The notes beneath the pieces were generated by a model. That model did not search any database and was not told the DNA's origin. It saw nothing but the letters and a program-made list of their open reading frames with translations. Of a DNA stretch of 64,000 nt, positions 57,228 through 64,000 are shown in pieces (the stretch's first letter is position 1; every line of letters starts with the position of its first letter). Origin of the DNA: an uncultured Nitrospiraceae bacterium (lineage in GTDB: Bacteria; Nitrospirota; Thermodesulfovibrionia; Thermodesulfovibrionales; SM23-35); NCBI GenBank assembly GCA_963718855.1, contig CAVRAA010000002.1, forward strand, positions 50,225-114,224, written 5' to 3'. The translations under genes and the position numbers were made by a program.

Positions 57228-58190
57228 ATGAATATGACTGACTCGACCCCTGAATTTTCGGTCGTCATCCCGATCTGCAACGAACAGGAGAACATCCCTG
57301 AACTCTGCACGAGGCTGACGGGCGTCATGGAGATCGCTCTGTGCAGTCGTGAATCTGCCCGGACGACCGATACGAAATCATCATCGTTGACGACGGCAGC
57401 AGGGACGCCTCATGGGAGCGTATAAGGGAATATCATGATCGTGACAGCAGGGTGAAGGGGATCAGCTTTTCGAGGAATTTCGGCCACCACATTGCAATCA
57501 CCGCCGGCATTGACAGTGCCAGGGGGAATACCGTCATTCTGATGGACGGTGACCTCCAGGACCCGCCTGAAGAGATCCCGGTGCTCTTTGAGAAATTCAG
57601 GGAAGGCTACGACATCGTCTACGGGATACGCCGGCACCGTGAAGACCCCTTGCTGAAAAAGATGTCCTCATCCGTGTTCTGGTGGATACTGAGAAAGTTC
57701 TCCGGAGTCGATATCCCGCAGGGACAGACGATGCTGCGGATTCTGAGCAGAAGGCTCATCGAGAGCATGAAAGGAATGCGGGAGCACGCGCGGTTTATCC
57801 ACGGCATGATGGCATGGGCCGGGTTCAGGACCGCGACAGTAACAGTCAGGCACGAGCCGAGGACAAAGGGAAAAAGTAAATACAATGTCCCCAAAATGTT
57901 CAGGCTCGCGTTTCATGCAGTAACCTCTTTTTCGATCAGTGCCGCTCAGACTCGCCACGTATCTCGGCTTCCTGAGCGCTTTGGCCAGTTTTCTTATCGG
58001 GATGTATTTCGTCTACAAGCGGTTTGTTTACGGGATCCCGGTGCTCGGGTACGCCTCGATCATCGTCTCGATCTTTTTCGTCGGCGGCATACAGCTGCTC
58101 GTCCTCGGGATATTCGGGGAGTATCTGGGAAGGACCTATCAGGAAGTCCAGAGAAGGCCGCTCTATATTATTCAGGAATCATTGTTGTAG
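57228..58190 (+). CDS. GT2 polyprenol-phosphate glycosyltransferase (GtrB/ArnC-like), frameshifted
   Basis: SVVIPICNE, IIVDDGSRD, SRNFGH, MDGDLQDPP, GKSKY, two TMs, GEYLGR...RPLYII. Confidence 0.88.
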
Positions 58191-58196
58191 GGTCGT

Positions 58197-58632
58197 TTTC
58201 CCCCACTTTAGAAAAGGGGGGTTAGGGGGGATTTGATTCCTCATGCTGCAATATGATAAGAGGCTTAAACAGTTTTCAAGGGCGCTTAGAACAAATATGA
58301 CGGATTCTGAAAAGCTGTTATGGGCAAAGATCAGAAGCAGGCAACTGAAAGGGCATCAATTTTACAGACAAAAGGTCATAGGGAGCTATATCGTCGATTT
58401 TTATTGCCCAAAAGCAAGATTAGTCATTGAAGTTGATGGAGGTCAGCATTATAGTGCTGAAGGTTTGAATAAAGATAAGATCAGAGATGATTTTCTGGAA
58501 GAATCCGGATTGAAGGTTATTAGATTTTCAGATAGTGAAGTCTGTAGGAATCTGCGAGGAGTTATCGAAAAAATATGGAGTTATTTATAATTTATAAAAT
58601 CTCCCCTTACCCCTCTTTGCCAAAGAGGGGAA
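58197..58632 (+). mobile_element. DUF559 endonuclease cassette B between ~38-bp inverted termini
   Basis: 58197-58236 is an imperfect inverted repeat of 58595-58632, bracketing only the DUF559 ORF. Confidence 0.6.
58243..58590 (+). CDS. DUF559 / Vsr-like endonuclease
   Basis: LRTNMTDSEKLLW, FYRQ, YIVDFYC, IEVDGGQH, GLKVIRF. Confidence 0.9.
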   Translation: MLQYDKRLKQFSRALRTNMTDSEKLLWAKIRSRQLKGHQFYRQKVIGSYIVDFYCPKARLVIEVDGGQHYSAEGLNKDKIRDDFLEESGLKVIRFSDSEVCRNLRGVIEKIWSYL

Positions 58633-58659
58633 TGAGAAAAATGAGGGATTTATAGCCTT

Positions 58660-59376
58660 ATGATCAAAGAATTGCCCTGGGACAGCGCTTTCTTCCGGAG
58701 AAAAATAGGGGCCTTAAAGGCGCCATCCGATGATCTTTCTGCTGTAAAAGACGCTCTCAAAAAAGCAAAAAAAGACGGCTTCGCATACCTGACGTGCAGG
58801 CTCCCGGCGCAGGATGCCGTATTGATAAGGCTTCTGGAATCTGTCGGTTTTTATCTGACCGATATCGGCGTCACACTGGAGACAGCCACACGGAGCTATT
58901 TTCAGAAAGGAAAGCAATCGCGTCCAACAAAACAGAATGCGATCAAAGCAGCGACCCTTGAGGACATACCGGCGCTGCAAAAATATATCACATCCCTTTT
59001 CCGCGAAAGCCGCTTTTATAATGACCCGTTTTTTCCCAGGGAGGACGCCGACAGACTGTATCGGGCATGGATCGAAAATTCCGTGAGAGGCGAGGCCGCA
59101 GACATCGTTTTCCATATTCCCGGAACAGGCTTTATCAGCTGCAGGAAAGCGGGAAAGCATTCAGGGCAGATTGTGCTTATCGGGATAAAGAAAAGATTCA
59201 GGGGAAAGGGGTACGGCACAGCGCTCATCGCAGAAGCGATGGCATGGTTCAGAAAGGAACGTATCAGCACCGTTACCGTGAGAACGCAGTTGAAAAATAC
59301 AAAGGCCCTGAATTTCTACCTTCATTCAGGCTTTACCGTAAAGGAATACGATATTATTTTTGGAAGGATATTGTGA
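58660..59376 (+). CDS. GNAT sugar N-acetyltransferase (WecD/RffC-like)
   Basis: LPWDSAFF, SRFYNDP, RLYRAWIEN, RGKGYG, VRTQLKN..AL.FY..SGF. Confidence 0.85.
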   Translation: MIKELPWDSAFFRRKIGALKAPSDDLSAVKDALKKAKKDGFAYLTCRLPAQDAVLIRLLESVGFYLTDIGVTLETATRSYFQKGKQSRPTKQNAIKAATLEDIPALQKYITSLFRESRFYNDPFFPREDADRLYRAWIENSVRGEAADIVFHIPGTGFISCRKAGKHSGQIVLIGIKKRFRGKGYGTALIAEAMAWFRKERISTVTVRTQLKNTKALNFYLHSGFTVKEYDIIFGRIL

Positions 59377-59378
59377 AC

Positions 59379-59489
59379 GACAGGATATTATGAACGACAG
59401 GATTCGAGGATTCCAGGGGTCCAGGATTCCAGTGTTGAAAGGTATTTATTAACTCGAACCCTTGAATCCTTGAATCCTTGAACCCCTTT
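59379..59489. repeat. inverted arrays of GGATTC(G/C)A-like octamers
   Basis: ggattcgaggattccaggggtccaggattcca ... cttgaatccttgaatccttgaacc. Confidence 0.65.
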
Positions 59490-61404
59490 TCAGTATCCCT
59501 GTCTCCGTAAAAACTCCAGTCGCTGCTTCACTTTTTCATTTGCCGGATCAATCATCTGCGCCTTTGAGAATGCCCTTTTTGCTTCCTGGTAGTTCTGCTT
59601 TGCGAGGAAGGCGTCGCCTATGGTGATCGAATAGTTCACGTTCCAGCCGTAGTCCTGCGCCTTGAGTGCCGCCTCAACCGCCACTTCATTCCACAGCCAC
59701 TCCTTCGGCATAGAGAACCGGTCTATGAAGGGTTTATTTGCAGGGCTCTCCTGCAGGAAGATGAGAGAGATGTTGTCCATATAGATGAGATGCCAGGCAG
59801 GGTCATTGAGCAGCGCGGGAATCAGCGGTACGAGCCTGCCGCGTAAAGTTGTCCACCGAATACGTGATGATAAAATCCACGTTATATGCCTTAAGGATCG
59901 CCTTCCATTCAGGTAATTGTTCTACGGGCTGCCGGGACGCCCCCAGCACCCTCACTTCCTGGAAGAAGACCTCGCCTATTAATCCCCTGCCGTCGATGAA
60001 GACCTTGTAGTCGGGATAGAGCTCCCACATGAGATATCCGCCCCAGACATACGGATTAAACATATTCCCGGGTATCCTGTTCTCTTTCAGAAACCGCGCA
60101 GCCCCTTCAGGGTATTTATTCATCCGGATGCCGCTCTTAAAGAGATCTGCATTGTTGATGACGATGATGAGGGCTATCGAAAGGATAATCGCAGACGGCA
60201 TCTCGATTTTTTTCGCCATCGACTGTAAGTAGCTCCGGTGGCTTCAGCTTCCTGAGGATTTCCGCTCCGTATCGGGCGATCATGAGTGCGGCGACCGGGC
60301 AGAAGAACGGGATAAAACGGGAAGACGAAAGGCTCATGACGGCAAGAACGGTCACGAGTACCCCATCAGTGAGGTCGCGTCTTTGTATGTCGATTACGAA
60401 GAGCAGGACCAAAAGGGTCAGGAGGATAAAATAGATGATGAATTGCGGTTCATAAAAACCGGACCGGACAAGGGTCACCGGGGATACCGATTCGATGATC
60501 ATGCTCTTGTAACGGCCGGTCTCGAATTCGAGGAGAAAGGGGAAAACCTTATAGCTGTTCGGATTCATAAAAGACGAGAGGACTGCGATAATACCCGCTA
60601 TGTTCAGCATCTTCAGGGAGCGGGAAGGGAGGATGCTCCCGAATCGTTTCATGAAATATTTCATATTTTCCGCAATAAGGTAACAGGCGAGAATCAGTAT
60701 CCCCAGGATAAAACCGCCATGAAGGTTCGCCCACAGGAGCATGATGAAGGGGAGGGGGAGAGGATAGAAGGTTGCAGGCCAATGACGAACGGCAATGACA
60801 GGCTGTTGTGTCTCACTCGAATCCTGGAATCCTTGATCCTTGAATCCTGTTGTGTTGCACTTGAATCCTCGAATCCTTGGATCCTATGGATCCTGTCGAT
60901 GTTGCACCCTTTGCCTTTCTAAACCCTTCCAGCAGAAAGATCAGAAGAAAAGCGAACAGAAACGAAAAAAGCTGTGGTCTTTCCCCTGTAAAGGTGCGGA
61001 ATATCATCACTACCGGGACAAGGAAAATGACGGAGGAGTAAATCCCGAACCCTTCTCTCCGTATGCCTCTGAATAGCAGGAATATGAGGAGCGTAAGCAG
61101 CGATGCCCTCAGGAAGATGATCCCCTCAAGGCCGAAAAGGTCGTATATCCGGTAGAAGATGACCTGAGCAAGCCAGTATTGTTTGAGGATGAACCCGATG
61201 CGCTTTTGATTCAGGGTTGAGAGGGTCTTTCTGCAGCGACGTATAGGCAAACGGGTCTGTCACGGGCAGTGATCCGGACTGATAAATATATTCGCCGGTC
61301 TTCAGATGCCACCAGAAATCAGGGTCCTTTATCTCGACGGAAAAAAGGCCGAAGACGAGGGTGAAGAGGAGGGCGAGGAGGATGAATTTGGAGATTCTTA
61401 ACAT
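59490..61404 (-). CDS. polytopic membrane protein, putative GT-C glycosyltransferase with C-terminal TPR, frameshifted
   Basis: DPDFWWHLKTGEYI after TM1, ERPQ, LWANLHGGF, NPN, RFIPFF, YP, N.Y.WGGYL, FIDGR; TPR tail. Confidence 0.7.
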
Positions 61405-61406
61405 TA

Positions 61407-61559
61407 GGATTCAAGGGTTCGAGGATTCAAGGGTTCGAGGAGTCAAGAGTATGAATCACTTGGCCTCTTTGCGTCAGTTTATTTTTCACTTGAATCCTCG
61501 ACTATCCTTGACTCCTGTTTTTTCACTTGAATCCTCGAATCCTTGGCCCCTGTGAATCC
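61407..61559. repeat. inverted arrays of GGATTCAA/GGGTTCGA octamers
   Basis: ggattcaagggttcgaggattcaagggttcga ... cttgaatcctcgaatccttg. Confidence 0.7.
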
Positions 61560-62025
61560 TATGTTTTTTCTATTTCTTTCATCACCAGATTGATCAGTAC
61601 AGGAATATTTTTTCTATCAGCGGTGAGAGTTCCATGCTGGCATCGAGGCTCTCCGGTTCGATGCCGAGGAATACGATCTCATCGGGTTTGGTCCCAGAAA
61701 ATTCGACGATGGCAATGACGTCCGAGAAGTCGATCCCATGGGCTGAACGCAGCGTCCCTTTTTTTGCTGCGAGATCTTTGTCGGTGAAGCGGAACAGTGT
61801 TCCCGGCGGCGCTCCCGCTTTTACTGCGTCGACCACAATAACTTTTTCTCTGCCCTCGATGAGAATAGAGAGATTGAGCCCTCCAACGCCTCCGTCCAAG
61901 ACTTCCACATCAGGCGGCAATGCATCTCCATGCATTTTTTCCGCAACGCGAACGCCGATGCCTTCGTCTGTCAGAAGGACATTGCCGATGCCGAGGATGA
62001 GTATTGTTTTATCTCGTGGTTCCAT
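61559..62025 (-). CDS. hydrogenase maturation protease (HybD/HyaD family), frameshift at C-terminus
   Basis: ILGIGNVLLTDEGIG, VLDGG, VVDA, SAH, LGIEP. Confidence 0.92.
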
Positions 62026-62081
62026 AGTATAATGTCGTCTATTATATAATTTTCAGCCCTAGATATTCCCAGCATTTGAGT

Positions 62082-62195
62082 AACTCTCCCTTGCCCCCTC
62101 TTAACCCAAGAGGGGAAAATAGGTAGAAATGAAAAATGCGAGTAATCCTTTTGTTTTTATGGCAGCCTCTAAGGTAAGAGGGGTCAGGGGGAGTT
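62082..62195. repeat. CCCCTCT-N-AGAGGGG hairpin repeat pair
   Basis: aactctcccttgccccctcttaacccaagagggg and its inverted partner cctctaaggtaagaggggtcagggggagtt. Confidence 0.6.
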
Positions 62196-62312
62196 ATGCT
62201 CTTCCGGTCTGTCCCAACCCTTATCAGGCAGCGGATGGTTCCAAGCAACTCCCTGTATACCAGGAATCGAGTTATGATTCCCCTTTAGTCAAAGGGATTC
62301 ATGTGGTTCTCC

Positions 62313-62344
62313 AAAAAAAAGGGAGGCGCTTTCGCGCCTCCCTT
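62313..62344 (-). terminator. rho-independent terminator after hydrogenase large subunit
   Basis: GGGAGGCGC-GAAA-GCGCCTCCC-U8 on the minus strand. Confidence 0.9.
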
Positions 62345-62365
62345 AAAGAGCAGCTCTGTATCGGA

Positions 62366-64000
62366 CTATTCTTTTACTTCGATGTTCGTTGGCCTTCCGT
62401 CAGGTCCGATAGCAAACTTCAGCGTCTCTTTCCCTTCGGGATTGACAACGTGGACTGCGCAAGCGATACAGCAATCGAACGGATGAACGAGCCTGAGGAT
62501 GTTCACGATCTGGCTCGGTTGCGTCCGTGCCGATGGTTGAGTCTATCAAGGGCCTGTTCAACAGGACCTGCTCGATGCCGTTGCATCCTGTCGGCGAGAA
62601 GTTCCATGTGGACGGAACGACGCACTGGTATTTCGCGACCTTGCGGCCTTCGATCTTTATCCAGTGGCCCAACGCGCCTCTCGGGCTTCGGTAAGACCAT
62701 AGCCTGTGCTGATCTGCTTCGGTATCTTCTTGTAGGTGTAACGGGCATCCGCAGCAAGCTGGTCAACCCAGCCGGTCACTGCCTGTGAGTACCTGCCATA
62801 AGGTCAGCAATGTACTTGGCCTCCAGTGCCCTTGCAGCGTGTCTTCCGAGCGCGCTGTAGAGAGCTGCTGCAGGTCTGGGTGACTAGCGCCCAAGCGTGC
62901 TGTCTAACAAGAGCTGTTACGCTGTAGTAGCGAGAGCTGCGCCGCCGAGGCCACTGACCTAAGCTGTCGCCGTCAGCTATGATGTCGTTAGCGGTAACCT
63001 GGTTCGCTGCGCTACAGGTAGGTTACTACCATACGCGCCAACGGTCCAACCTCGCATACTATCGGTGTCTGTTCCGTTCATATACCTCGGGGCCTTGAGC
63101 CAGCTGTAGCCGCCTGATGCTCATATTCGGAGTGGTCTTTCCGTCAAACGGATGCAGACCTGCTGCATCGAGAATTCCGTAGTTGTAATAGGAACTGCCG
63201 ACATACTCCCTGATCTTGGCCTGGTCGAAAGTGCTCGGTGTAAGAGTACGGTTGACACAGTCCTCTCTTGATGGCGAGTTTCCCGTTGCATTGACCGGAT
63301 AATCACCATAGGAGAGGAGATTTCCACAGCCGACGCCCTGGCTCCAGAATGCACGAGTATGCGGATGATTCGCAACGGTCACAACATCCGGAATGTACTT
63401 GGTGTTGATGAATGTCCTGACTTCGTATCAGGAGCGATTTGAACTTGCTTACCGTGTCTGGTGGCATTGAAAGGACCGAACTGATCGTAATCGGTCGTGA
63501 CCGGTGTCCATCGGATAGGTCGAGGAGAACAGTGTTGTCACACCGCCCGGAACCATTGCGTTCTGGATCGGCTGCCTGCCGCTGAAGAGCGCTCCTGCGG
63601 TATGCATCTTCCTTCTCATGTGCAAGGCCTGGACATAGTGGACGAACGAGTGTTCGAACCGAGTGCGCCGAGCTTCCGTCTATCATGTCGGATGCCGTAT
63701 AGGACGGCAGCCACGGGGCCATGCCCGGGAAGCTGGACGTGTTGATGAAGTCCAGTGCGGACAGGTGATAGAGATGGGTGATGTGCGACATGACGAGTGT
63801 CGCAGCCCTGAATGATGTTCTGGATTATCCTGCCGTTAGTCGGGATTGATGCGTCGAGTATGCCGTATGCATATTACCGGCTGCAGTCTGATGTTCCCGG
63901 ATCAACGTTAATGCCTAATGCTGTTTCTAAGCTTCTAACTGAAGCTAACCCATGTGCAGTGGGTCAGACTGCTCATATACGCTGGGCAATGACAGGTGCG
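62366..64000 (-). CDS. [NiFe(Se)]-hydrogenase large subunit, group 1a-like (5' end outside window; many indels; two in-frame TGA in L1 motif)
   Basis: QRI*AV*PTAH, IPTNGRIIQN, SHITHLYHLSALDF, EVGPLAR, RGALGHWIKI, YQCVVPSTWNFSP, HPFDCCIACAVH plus cleavable tail. Confidence 0.88.

Follow-up and report, generated by a model that had tools for sequence, protein, structure and literature searches.

In-frame UGA codons conserved at both N-terminal nickel-ligand positions of a predicted Group 1 [NiFe]-hydrogenase: a putative UxxU enzyme of Thermodesulfovibrionales

Does a hydrogenase gene with stop codons in place of both cysteines of its N-terminal nickel-binding (L1) motif encode an enzyme with two selenium ligands, an ordinary enzyme made by unusual decoding, or no enzyme at all? 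This question is raised by one end of the window, the whole 64,000-nucleotide stretch of DNA that we analyzed (G000:C2:50225-114224, with 847 b of the contig remaining beyond the window end). The host is a sediment bacterium. The minus-strand sequence at this end is CAG CGT ATA TGA GCA GTC TGA CCC ACT GCA CAT, or Q-R-I-stop-A-V-stop-P-T-A-H. The first-pass annotation of this DNA had placed TGA at both L1 cysteine positions, and rereading of the strand confirmed both codons (Table 1). Both cysteines of the L1 pattern RxCGxCxxxH are thus TGA, with the rest of the motif intact (R-I-x-A-V-x-P-T-A-H), and the pattern would be complete only with UGA read as selenocysteine (Sec) or Cys. Through the orthologue in locus L023, UGA-1 can be matched to the D. 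vulgaris [NiFeSe] hydrogenase, where the first Cys of QRICGVCPTAH takes its place, and CxxC homologues of 56 to 70% identity have Cys at both positions aligned with UGA-1 and UGA-2. Following the textbook assignment, we take the UGA-1 position to be a terminal Ni ligand and the UGA-2 position to be a Ni-Fe bridging ligand. Upstream of the motif, the frame extends past the end of the window through ...FRGFELIMNKRDPRDAPVIAQ and as far back as MATITIDPVNRIEGH, and the start codon of the large-subunit gene lies on the same contig at about window-equivalent position 64154.

Table 1. Features of the hydrogenase locus in window coordinates
Feature	Position	Strand	Description
[NiFe]-hydrogenase large-subunit gene	62366..64000	(-)	Cut by window end; many single-base indels
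UGA-1	63973..63975	(-)	In-frame TGA, first Cys position of L1 Ni-binding motif (RxC1GxC2xxxH)
UGA-2	63964..63966	(-)	In-frame TGA, second Cys position of L1
SECIS-like hairpin	63930..63946	(-)	6-bp stem AGCUUC/GAAGCU, apical loop AGUUA at 63936-63940
L2 Ni-binding motif DCCIACAVH	62450..62476	(-)	Both ligands encoded by ordinary Cys codons
Hydrogenase maturation endopeptidase (HycI/HybD family)	61594..62025	(-)	Directly downstream; intact 143-aa frame; PF01750, 89.6 bits

The predicted product of the locus is a Group 1 [NiFe]-hydrogenase large subunit, part of a Thermodesulfovibrionales (Nitrospirota) enzyme that would be periplasmic, exported by Tat, and linked to cytochrome c. The window copy aligns to loci L024 and L076 over about 1.7 to 1.8 kb at 79 to 81% nucleotide identity, and the L023 orthologue scored 371.3 bits against Pfam PF00374 (cutoff, 25.8). 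Searched against the PDB, this orthologue matched 5jsu (1.4e-85) and 4kl8 and 1cc1 (both about 1e-84) from end to end. L1 of these best solved relatives, the periplasmic [NiFeSe] enzymes, is QRICGVCPTAH, which supports the Group 1 identity and L1 consensus proposed at first pass. With U read as C, two orthologues scored below the cutoffs of both NF033181 (456.8 and 480.4 bits; cutoff, 600) and NF045518 (375.1 and 380.9 bits; cutoff, 780). The weakest family match listed, to NuoD (NF004739; E = 9e-4), occurred in one of the two proteins and does not place them in Group 4. Judged by nearest solved structures and NCBIfam scores only, the predicted protein family is a Group 1a-like subfamily of its own that is related to [NiFeSe] hydrogenases. 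The L023 operon encodes a 397-aa small subunit that starts MVRITRRDFLK, has a Tat signal, and matches PF01058 and PF14720, with c-type cytochromes encoded downstream. The small-subunit gene in G000 is frame-broken and runs off the contig end.

At the other end of the protein, the C-terminal L2 motif of the window copy has Cys and no TGA. The Pro that usually precedes the first L2 ligand is Cys in this copy, and homologues contain HPFD[C/I]CIACAVH or SFDPCIAC. The first L2 ligand was Cys in every UxxU sequence of our tree with the C terminus present, and Sec at this position (DPUxxC) was not encountered among them. Two Cys ligands at L2, a C-terminal extension (27 residues after DCCIACAVH), and a dedicated endopeptidase gene together predict maturation by C-terminal cleavage. 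Gene callers had been expected to split or miss such a gene, and the public protein of the L023 orthologue (P0001) does begin at a TTG after the second TGA, giving 504 aa compared to 574 aa for the read-through frame.

The TGA pair recurred well beyond the window. Among 41 genomes searched (G000 and 40 relatives), an L1 match contained two in-frame TGA codons in 8 genomes and one TGA in 4 genomes, and a protein search that did not require TGA recovered the pair in 4 other genera of the family. A nucleotide pattern with 19 specified bases that demands both TGA codons (R-I-TGA-x-V-TGA-P-x-A-H-G) found six records among genome contigs, all titled as Nitrospirota, Thermodesulfovibrionales, or Nitrospiraceae metagenome-assembled genomes, and 66 metagenome contigs, 65 of which had hydrogenase L1 context. 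The remaining contig, L070, was rejected as a UxxU hydrogenase and represents a chance pattern match. Wetland, sediment, and freshwater metagenomes frequently contained the form (the 65 contigs). RIU[G/A]VUP is the motif common to the window gene and these relatives, and the homologues with TGA at RI-stop-x-V-stop-P that the first-pass annotation had called for are present in relatives, genome records, and metagenome contigs alike. In 11 of 12 loci inspected, frames of 557 to 605 aa held exactly two TGA codons, both at L1; the twelfth, L021, is frame-broken. The reading frame of the downstream part is shared by about 60 conserved codons upstream of UGA-1, so that the two parts have to be translated as a single chain. 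Conservation of the pair in intact homologues also upholds the earlier argument that two substitution errors at these very codons are unlikely. A general reassignment of TGA to Trp or Gly was rejected, since intact homologous frames contain no other TGA; selA and selB are open under table 11. Taken together, the codons almost certainly form a conserved, recoded UGA pair.

Single-TGA forms were also observed. In L009, position 1 is TGC and the UGA-2 position alone is TGA (a CxxU form, RICGVUPTAH), and L094 to L096 have the CxxU form RFCGVUTTVH. On the tree, UxxU and CxxC forms were interleaved, implying many Sec/Cys switches within one clade, and deep branches of the family have retained TGA at the two sites. 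Sec and Cys sister paralogues also occur within one genome, as in G023. The UxxU rows of this tree came from the pattern demanding both TGA codons and those of CxxC type were collected by searching proteins with a single UxxU query, so UxxC and many CxxU forms could not appear. We left out L001 (the broken copy of the window), L021, L070, L093 (whose 797-aa frame continues into the gene that follows), loci above L097, contigs that yielded fewer than 400 aa, exact duplicates, and database proteins that were shorter than 470 aa or lacked a readable CxxC L1.

The window copy itself contains about 30 frame-breaking indels. DNA alignment, by which frame breaks were counted, revealed 47 gap events in comparison with either of two close orthologues, and 37 of the 47 against L024 were not multiples of three; tblastn with an orthologue passed through the stop codons without tracing the frame. 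As the first-pass annotation had held from the letters, these errors are indels, mostly single inserted bases, and not substitutions. Mismatches between the window copy and L024 by codon position were 0.084/0.075/0.299, and those between two intact orthologues were 0.119/0.092/0.303. The window copy was under purifying selection, and the match between these patterns makes the frame breaks look like assembly errors; in all likelihood they are errors at the contig end and not gene decay. Coverage by stop-free frames along contigs, a blunt proxy, did not resolve the contig end from the rest. None of eight sequencing runs checked contained this strain (each shared at most 0.07 of words), so the intactness of the gene in the living cell is presumed from these comparisons. 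Contigs of four runs, compared at 85% likeness, yielded only pieces of relatives, none of which spanned the gene. Relatives' contigs from other runs lack several of the extra window bases, such as those at 62360, 63505, and 63797.

We then considered how UGA might be decoded at this locus. A predicted SECIS-like hairpin with a G in its apical loop, a feature of selenoprotein genes when found shortly downstream of an in-frame UGA, begins 17 nt past UGA-2. In 56 distinct sequences, 91.1% of stem cells were paired, compared to at most 50% in slid controls, a comparison that favors the hairpin as its structure was derived from single-sequence folds of the same sequences. Cells changed on both sides of the stem numbered 23, against 5.0 +/- 1.9 in shuffles (0 of 500 shuffles reached 23), a signal that partly reflects shared ancestry and protein constraint since the hairpin lies in a conserved coding stretch of 56 related sequences. 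The stem variants GCUUC/GAAGC, GCAUC/GAUGC, and GCUGC/GCAGC were all seen, and column pair 30-46 occurred as AU, CG, GC, and UA. At least five of six base pairs formed in the main register in 49 of the 56 sequences, and at least seven of eight formed with a tetraloop one column over in another 6; a single sequence had neither form. Loop G37 and loop U38 were each present in 55 of 56 sequences. A guanine at loop position 1 or 2 has been reported for bacterial SECIS elements (PMC13582414), and the loop of this hairpin agrees. Counting against the structure, RNAalifold did not return this hairpin from the 56-sequence alignment; its consensus was instead an invariant hairpin pairing columns 9-16 with 24-31, with no covarying pairs. 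L097, the only in-clade Cys paralogue whose DNA was compared, has no such hairpin (-1.9 kcal/mol).

Spacing differs between the two codons. Measured to the U of each codon, the loop G at 63939 is 27 nt away for UGA-2 and 36 nt away for UGA-1. In the same genome, the corresponding distances are 24 nt for selD and 26 to 27 nt for a formate dehydrogenase gene (fdhA), which UGA-2 matches. UGA-1 lies 9 to 12 nt beyond the three other spacings in the genome, which makes Sec at this codon the weaker proposal; bSECISearch reportedly accepts a UGA-to-SECIS range of about 16 to 37 nt.

The genome has the means to insert Sec. The first-pass annotation had asked for selA, selB, selC, and selD, and all were found: G000 encodes a tRNA-Sec(UCA), and selA (616 bits), selB (371 bits), and selD (291 bits) each exceeded the family cutoff. 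A tRNA-Sec scoring 70 to 73 bits was found in all five UxxU genomes tested. G000 also has a SelC*-type tRNA-Cys(GCA) at C5:346517-346612 (96 nt, 8-bp acceptor stem, long variable arm, and U73 discriminator), located about 700 bp upstream of selD, itself a gene with an in-frame TGA. A second tRNA-Sec-like match of 56 to 61 bits, counted as a SelC*-type tRNA-Cys(GCA), occurred in four of the five UxxU genomes, including G000. In G023, a complete one-contig genome with a UxxU gene, tRNA-Sec is present and the next-best RF01852 match reached only 42 bits; this genome shows no SelC*-like tRNA, so a Cys-recoding tRNA seemingly is not required. Across the order, SelC*-type tRNAs are widespread in genomes with and without a UxxU gene. 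Thermodesulfovibrio and Nitrospirae have been described as having SelC* tRNA-Cys that carries U73 and either GCA or UCA as its anticodon (PMC5389517), SECIS-dependent decoding of UGA as Cys by both anticodon types is attributed to Vargas-Rodriguez 2018 (as cited in PMC13582414), and Takano et al. report enrichment of SelC*-type tRNAs in genomes with UXXU Group 4 hydrogenases (PMC13582414).

We favor, at a probability of roughly 0.65, a UxxU enzyme in which selenium serves as a terminal and as a bridging ligand, a reading that draws on sequence comparison and requires Sec at both UGA codons. For UGA-2 considered separately, Sec is very probable. In this model, SelB with Sec-tRNA(Sec) would bind the G-U apical loop and decode UGA-2 by standard bacterial Sec insertion, and the same hairpin, 9 nt further off, would also serve UGA-1. 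The mature site would then hold Ni with two L1 selenolates, one terminal and one bridging to Fe, together with two L2 thiolates, an arrangement that would mirror the classical [NiFeSe] enzyme, whose single Sec is at the first L2 position. We infer the selenium insertion, the use of one hairpin for both codons, and the ligand roles. The first-pass annotation had proposed either two Sec ligands or UGA-to-Cys recoding; TGA conservation and the sel genes support that pair of options and point to selenium, and Cys recoding is still a live rival.

According to that rival, which we regard as unlikely but serious, SelB brings the SelC*-type tRNA-Cys to the same hairpin, and one or both UGA codons are read wholly or partly as Cys. 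This would most plausibly affect UGA-1, or both codons under selenium shortage, and would yield an ordinary or mixed Se/S [NiFe] site. The SelC*-type tRNA-Cys near selD in G000, the second tRNA-Sec-like match in most UxxU genomes, the published occurrence of such tRNAs in Nitrospirae (PMC5389517) and alongside UXXU Group 4 enzymes (PMC13582414), and the unusual distance of UGA-1 from the hairpin all speak for Cys. However, the tRNA is also widespread in genomes that lack a UxxU gene, and the complete G023 genome combines a UxxU gene with no SelC*-like tRNA. Moreover, TGC or TGT would suffice for Cys without any machinery, yet TGA has been kept at both sites across deep branches. A related and more speculative proposal is that the UGA pair is dual coded, giving Sec-x-x-Sec when selenium is available and Cys-x-x-Cys or a mixed motif under shortage through the SelC*-type tRNA-Cys, with the same SelB and hairpin serving both tRNAs. 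If true, selenium supply would decide whether the one gene produces a Ni(Se2S2) hydrogenase or an ordinary Ni(S4) one, and the UxxU/CxxC switches and Sec/Cys sister paralogues would be the evolutionary trace of this flexibility.

Readings that dispense with recoding fare far worse. The many gap events that break frame in the window copy, and the lack of a run with this strain for verification, would suit TGA codons that arose as sequencing or assembly errors or that belong to a decayed pseudogene. Yet the same pair stands in intact frames from many independent assemblies, which refutes this account for the family, and the window copy has inserted bases instead of substitutions, the substitution pattern of a gene under purifying selection, and extra bases that relatives' contigs from other runs do not share. 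We consider an artefact or dead gene very improbable. Hardly credible, and slightly less so than an artefact, is the gene as annotated, with termination at UGA-1 and a separate product from a start past UGA-2. Public calls do begin at a TTG or ATG beyond UGA-2 (P0001 at 504 aa, and many others covering 79 to 88% of the query). Such a product, however, would lack both L1 ligands and the conserved, in-frame N-terminal 60 residues, the called starts vary among contigs (MASVRSL, MSHITHLY, MPANGR, and others) as expected from next-available-start calling, and Cys-type relatives are single chains of 584 to 621 aa.

A UxxU enzyme of this kind would have consequences for how selenium is understood in hydrogenases. 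To our knowledge, all characterized [NiFeSe] hydrogenases have one Se, carried by the terminal L2 ligand that is regarded as the proton acceptor. In the present enzyme, selenium would putatively be found at the two L1 ligands instead, including the one that bridges Ni and Fe, with sulfur left at the L2 position, and the setting would be a soluble periplasmic Group 1 enzyme near the best-studied [NiFeSe] hydrogenases, for which expression, crystallography, and protein film electrochemistry are established. The role of Se at each ligand position could then be tested on a natural enzyme instead of on engineered variants of low activity. The many Sec/Cys switches in one clade offer a good system for studying gain and loss of two-UGA motifs. 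Since current gene calls shorten the UxxU gene, hydrogenase surveys undercount or misclassify it.

As to precedent, N-terminal UxxU of hydrogenases appeared only in Group 4 (2026) and CxxU in Group 1 in the article texts that we searched, and a Group 1 UxxU enzyme did not appear. The novelty is smaller than assumed at first pass, with N-terminal UXXU already known in Group 4 and CXXU in Group 1 (PMC13582414). Within that literature, the two-selenium active site that the enzyme most likely has is a form not yet described for Group 1 [NiFe]-hydrogenases. Takano et al., whose article terms UXXC and UXXU 'previously unrecognized', left Groups 1 to 3 out of their survey by design (PMC13582414). N-terminal CXXU in two Group 1 sequences is credited to Baltazar et al. 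2011 (as cited in PMC13582414 and PMC8020662); there Sec is at the bridging L1 position only, whereas the present gene has UGA at the first L1 ligand too. Tables of two reviews list hydrogenase large (alpha) subunits as UxxC only and VhuD/MvhD (delta) as CxxU (PMC13188914, PMC9312934). The predicted bacterial UxxU selenoproteins that these sources describe, a thiol:disulfide oxidoreductase of Prx-like type, a mercuric-reductase-like metal-binding protein, and an FmdB-family protein, likewise have two Sec residues two residues apart, but in thiol-redox or metal-binding roles (PMC13188914, PMC9312934).

In E. coli Hyd-1, Sec has been engineered into the equivalents of both L1 ligands in turn (Evans et al. 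2021, PMC8020662). The C76U and C79U variants retained 3% and 13% of native activity, still oxidized H2 with a lower apparent KM for H2, and were no more tolerant of prolonged O2 exposure, so that Sec at these positions brings no obvious benefit. Unlike the present gene, these were single changes made by UAG suppression in an O2-tolerant Group 1d enzyme, with no double variant described in that article.

The closest parallel in motif is the Group 4 [NiFeSe] set of CXXU, UXXC, and UXXU forms (Takano et al. 2026, PMC13582414), with two UGA codons three codons apart at the same motif position. For Group 4 UXXU, one downstream SECIS with a conserved loop G was likewise proposed for both UGA codons, and in both families SelC*-like tRNAs co-occur and the tree shows a mosaic of Sec and Cys forms (PMC13582414). 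Group 4 enzymes are membrane-bound and energy-converting, whereas the present enzyme is predicted to be of the periplasmic Group 1 uptake type. The closest parallel in setting is HysAB of Desulfovibrio vulgaris Hildenborough and Desulfomicrobium baculatum (Group 1a), in which the L1 context QRIxGVxPTAH is identical. HysAB and the orthologous L023 operon both have a Tat small subunit, an adjacent maturation protease gene, and c-type cytochromes downstream, and both have a selenoprotein gene, putative in the present case, with a SECIS inside the coding region. In contrast to HysAB, the present family has Cys or Ile in place of the Pro before the first L2 ligand and proteins of 557 to 605 aa instead of chains of about 485 to 507 aa. 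HysAB has Sec at the first L2 position, whereas the present enzyme would have Sec at both L1 positions and Cys at both L2 ligands.

The two in-frame TGA codons that the first-pass annotation placed at the Cys positions of the Ni-binding N-terminal motif (L1) of a [NiFe]-hydrogenase were confirmed to the nucleotide on the minus strand. The window covers contig positions 50225-114224 (G000:C2), and the contig continues for 847 b beyond it, where the same frame upstream of L1 reads ...FRGFELIMNKRDPRDAPVIAQ; further back, past frame slips, the large-subunit frame reaches MATITIDPVNRIEGH, which is the start of the [NiFe]-hydrogenase large subunit. The small-subunit gene precedes it and leaves the contig end.

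Features of the hydrogenase locus within the window
Feature	Position	Strand	Description
UGA-1	63975-63973	minus	in-frame TGA within Q-R-I-TGA-A-V-TGA-P-T-A-H at window end
UGA-2	63966-63964	minus	second in-frame TGA, same L1 motif
SECIS-like hairpin	63930-63946	minus	stem AGCUUC/GAAGCU, loop AGUUA
C-terminal Ni-binding (L2) motif DCCIACAVH	62450-62476	minus	ordinary Cys codons
HycI-family maturation protease gene	61594-62025	minus	comes after large subunit

The orthologue at locus L023 matched PF00374 with 371 bits, and among solved structures its best relatives were the [NiFeSe] hydrogenases from the periplasm of D. vulgaris Hildenborough and Desulfomicrobium baculatum (5jsu, 1.4e-85; 4kl8 and 1cc1, ~1e-84). 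Since the alignment runs end to end and L1 of these enzymes is QRICGVCPTAH, the two TGA codons stand in for the two L1 ligands, in the textbook assignment a terminal Ni ligand followed by one that bridges Ni and Fe. Neither curated NCBIfam [NiFeSe] model was matched above its cut-off, indicating that the enzyme belongs to a subfamily of its own. In the orthologous operon, a 397-aa small subunit with an N-terminal twin-arginine signal accompanies the large subunit, which is followed by the protease and two multihaem c-type cytochromes, a predicted periplasmic uptake-type arrangement. This small subunit (L023:6374-7564) has ~90 residues between its Oxidored_q6 and NiFe_hyd_SSU_C matches and is presumably longer than those of classical [NiFeSe] enzymes.

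We searched the genome containing the window (G000) and 40 relatives with the 41-residue L1 stretch, reading through TGA. Close matches with two in-frame TGA codons occurred in five genomes (G000, G004, G009, G023, and G024), weaker matches with two in three more (G028, G033, and G040), and single-TGA matches in four (G018, G025, G031, and G037). On inspection, loci L001 (the window copy) to L005 read RIU[G/A]VUPTAH, with TGA (written U) at both ligand positions (UxxU), and L009 read RICGVUPTAH (CxxU). A DNA pattern for R-I-TGA-x-V-TGA-P-x-A-H-G matched six records among species-representative genomes, all titled Nitrospirota, Thermodesulfovibrionales, or Nitrospiraceae MAGs, and 66 metagenome contigs, 65 with hydrogenase context on both sides; the other, L070, was a chance hit lacking that context. 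In 11 of 12 longer loci inspected, the frame spanned 557-605 aa and contained two TGA codons and no more, both at L1; L021 was frame-broken. Homologs of the kind proposed as a check of the first-pass reading were thus found in relatives' genomes, genome records, and metagenome contigs, and because these share the TGA pair within intact frames, it is a family feature that did not arise by error in this assembly. Metagenomes from anoxic freshwater and soil commonly contain the UxxU form. It escapes notice because gene callers hide it: as anticipated, public calls of UxxU genes lose the N terminus.

Sec-decoding genes, also named as a check, were found: G000 encodes tRNA-Sec(UCA), selA, selB, and selD, the last with its own in-frame TGA, and tRNA-Sec was present in all five UxxU genomes tested. 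In this assembly, selD has a frameshift near C5:347980. Among 56 distinct aligned UxxU sequences, a short hairpin can form downstream of the motif, in one register or another, in all except L047. At least five of six specified pairs formed in 49 of 56; six used an alternative register one column over, with a GGUC or AGUU tetraloop (threshold, at least 7/8 bp), and one (L047) formed neither. Overall, 91.1% of specified cells were paired compared with at most 50% in slid controls, and 23 cells had changed on both sides versus 5.0 +/- 1.9 in shuffles (0 of 500 reaching 23), counts drawn from related sequences in a coding region. Loop positions 2 and 3 were G and U, respectively, each in 55 of 56, the former as expected from published bacterial SECIS elements, which have a guanine in the loop (PMC13582414). 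Encoded residues vary while pairing stays (S-V-R-S, S-V-R-C, A-V-S-S, and S-V-E-A), suggesting that amino acids here change so as to keep pairing. No hairpin was found at this place in L097, the one in-clade Cys-type gene examined. Counting against the specified hairpin, the RNAalifold consensus for the 56 sequences was a different, invariant hairpin without covariation. This second possible hairpin pairs alignment columns 9-16 with 24-31 (window ~63945-63967; stem UGACCCA/UGGGUUA, including UGA-2); synonymous sites there are near-invariant (Pro CCC, His CAU, and Gly GGG), and the alignment speaks neither for nor against it.

UGA-2 is 27 nt, and UGA-1 36 nt, away from the loop G of the specified hairpin. 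As this distance is 24 nt in selD and 26-27 nt in a formate dehydrogenase of G000, UGA-2 has the spacing of other Sec codons in the organism, and the UGA-1 spacing is 9-12 nt longer, making Sec at UGA-1 the weaker inference. A single hairpin for both codons is plausible: on general grounds, it would remain outside the ribosomal mRNA channel while either is decoded. A one-hairpin arrangement has been proposed for Group 4 UXXU genes (PMC13582414).

In a quick maximum-likelihood tree (IQ-TREE, LG+G4, SH-aLRT support only, 97 rows), the P-T-A-H type formed a clade of 68 rows (46 UxxU, 21 CxxC, and 1 CxxU) whose deepest lineages were all UxxU or CxxU. The whole tree required at least 16 changes of the UxxU label, 13 forced by well-supported branches; because UxxU rows came from a pattern needing both TGA codons and CxxC rows from a search around one UxxU query, this sampling is biased, and several switches are robust while their number is rough. 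In the complete genome G023, UxxU gene L020 is sister to the CxxC paralogue L097 (support 100), resembling the Sec/Cys isoenzyme pairs of methanogens. The L2 Pro of DPCxxC is replaced in this subfamily (among UxxU rows, Cys 19, Ile 6, Pro 7, and Phe 4, with 13 rows lacking the C terminus), and Phe predominates among CxxC rows of the clade (18; Ile 2 and Cys 1), a difference that may offer a lead but not a test, the rows being related. The extra Cys beside the terminal L2 ligand may affect the active site. Sec codons in L1 also occur in a second Group 1 lineage of this order: L091 (G033), L092 (G028), and L093 (G040) carry QRIUGVUTTVH, an L2 reading SFDPCxACAVH, and an equally distant hairpin, and L094 (G031), L095 (G025), and L096 (G037) carry QRFCGVUTTVH (CxxU). 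Among solved structures, L091 is best related to 3myr, the membrane-bound hydrogenase of Allochromatium vinosum (745 bits), which places this lineage outside the [NiFeSe] clade, as a standard membrane-bound type.

The window copy itself is frame-broken. Against its nearest intact orthologues, L024 and L076 (79-81% nucleotide identity), it showed 47 gap events each; 37 of the 47 against L024 were not multiples of three, mostly single extra bases outside homopolymers. Two intact orthologues compared alike showed 15 events, six of them with lengths not divisible by three, and alignment noise therefore accounts for some events. Mismatches by codon position were 0.084/0.075/0.299 against L024 and 0.119/0.092/0.303 between intact orthologues, so that the substitution pattern looks like that of a working gene. 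Because a gene with ~30 true frameshifts should have lost this pattern, the indels very probably arose as errors where support for the contig end is poor; none of the sequencing runs searched for the strain's reads contains it. Several genes from window ~57400-64000 and on to the contig end are split into overlapping frames (glycosyltransferase-like ORFs, 57452-58225; membrane-protein ORFs, 59803-61404; both hydrogenase subunits), and open selA and selB elsewhere versus split genes here suggest uneven assembly quality.

The first-pass annotation also allowed UGA-to-Cys recoding. G000 does encode, ~700 bp upstream of selD and outside the window, a 96-nt tRNA of Sec-like shape with U73, a GCA anticodon, a long variable arm, and an acceptor stem of 8 bp (C5:346517-346612). 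It is of the SelC* tRNA-Cys class, known from Thermodesulfovibrio and Nitrospirae (PMC5389517). Four of five UxxU genomes have such a tRNA, but so do many relatives with and without a UxxU gene, and the complete single-contig UxxU genome G023 does not, so SelC* is probably not required; Cys insertion at either UGA or at both, possibly when selenium is scarce, is a less likely alternative. Sec at both codons is the most likely reading, and the conserved TGA pair, family placement, sel genes, and hairpin support the proposed hydrogenase with two Sec ligands.

We therefore describe a natural Group 1 hydrogenase with both L1 ligands encoded by UGA; the literature searched yielded no description of a published Group 1 UxxU enzyme. 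Two recent prokaryotic selenoproteome reviews list only UxxC for hydrogenase large (alpha) subunits and CxxU for VhuD/MvhD delta (PMC13188914, PMC9312934). Classical [NiFeSe] enzymes carry one Sec, at L2, where none was found here. For the N-terminal motif, Takano et al. (2026) described CXXU, UXXC, and UXXU in Group 4 only, in a survey excluding Groups 1-3, and reported that earlier work had noted only CXXU, in one sequence of Group 3 and two of Group 1 (PMC13582414). In engineered Hyd-1, the single substitutions C76U and C79U were each tolerated, with lower activity and a lower KM for H2 (PMC8020662).
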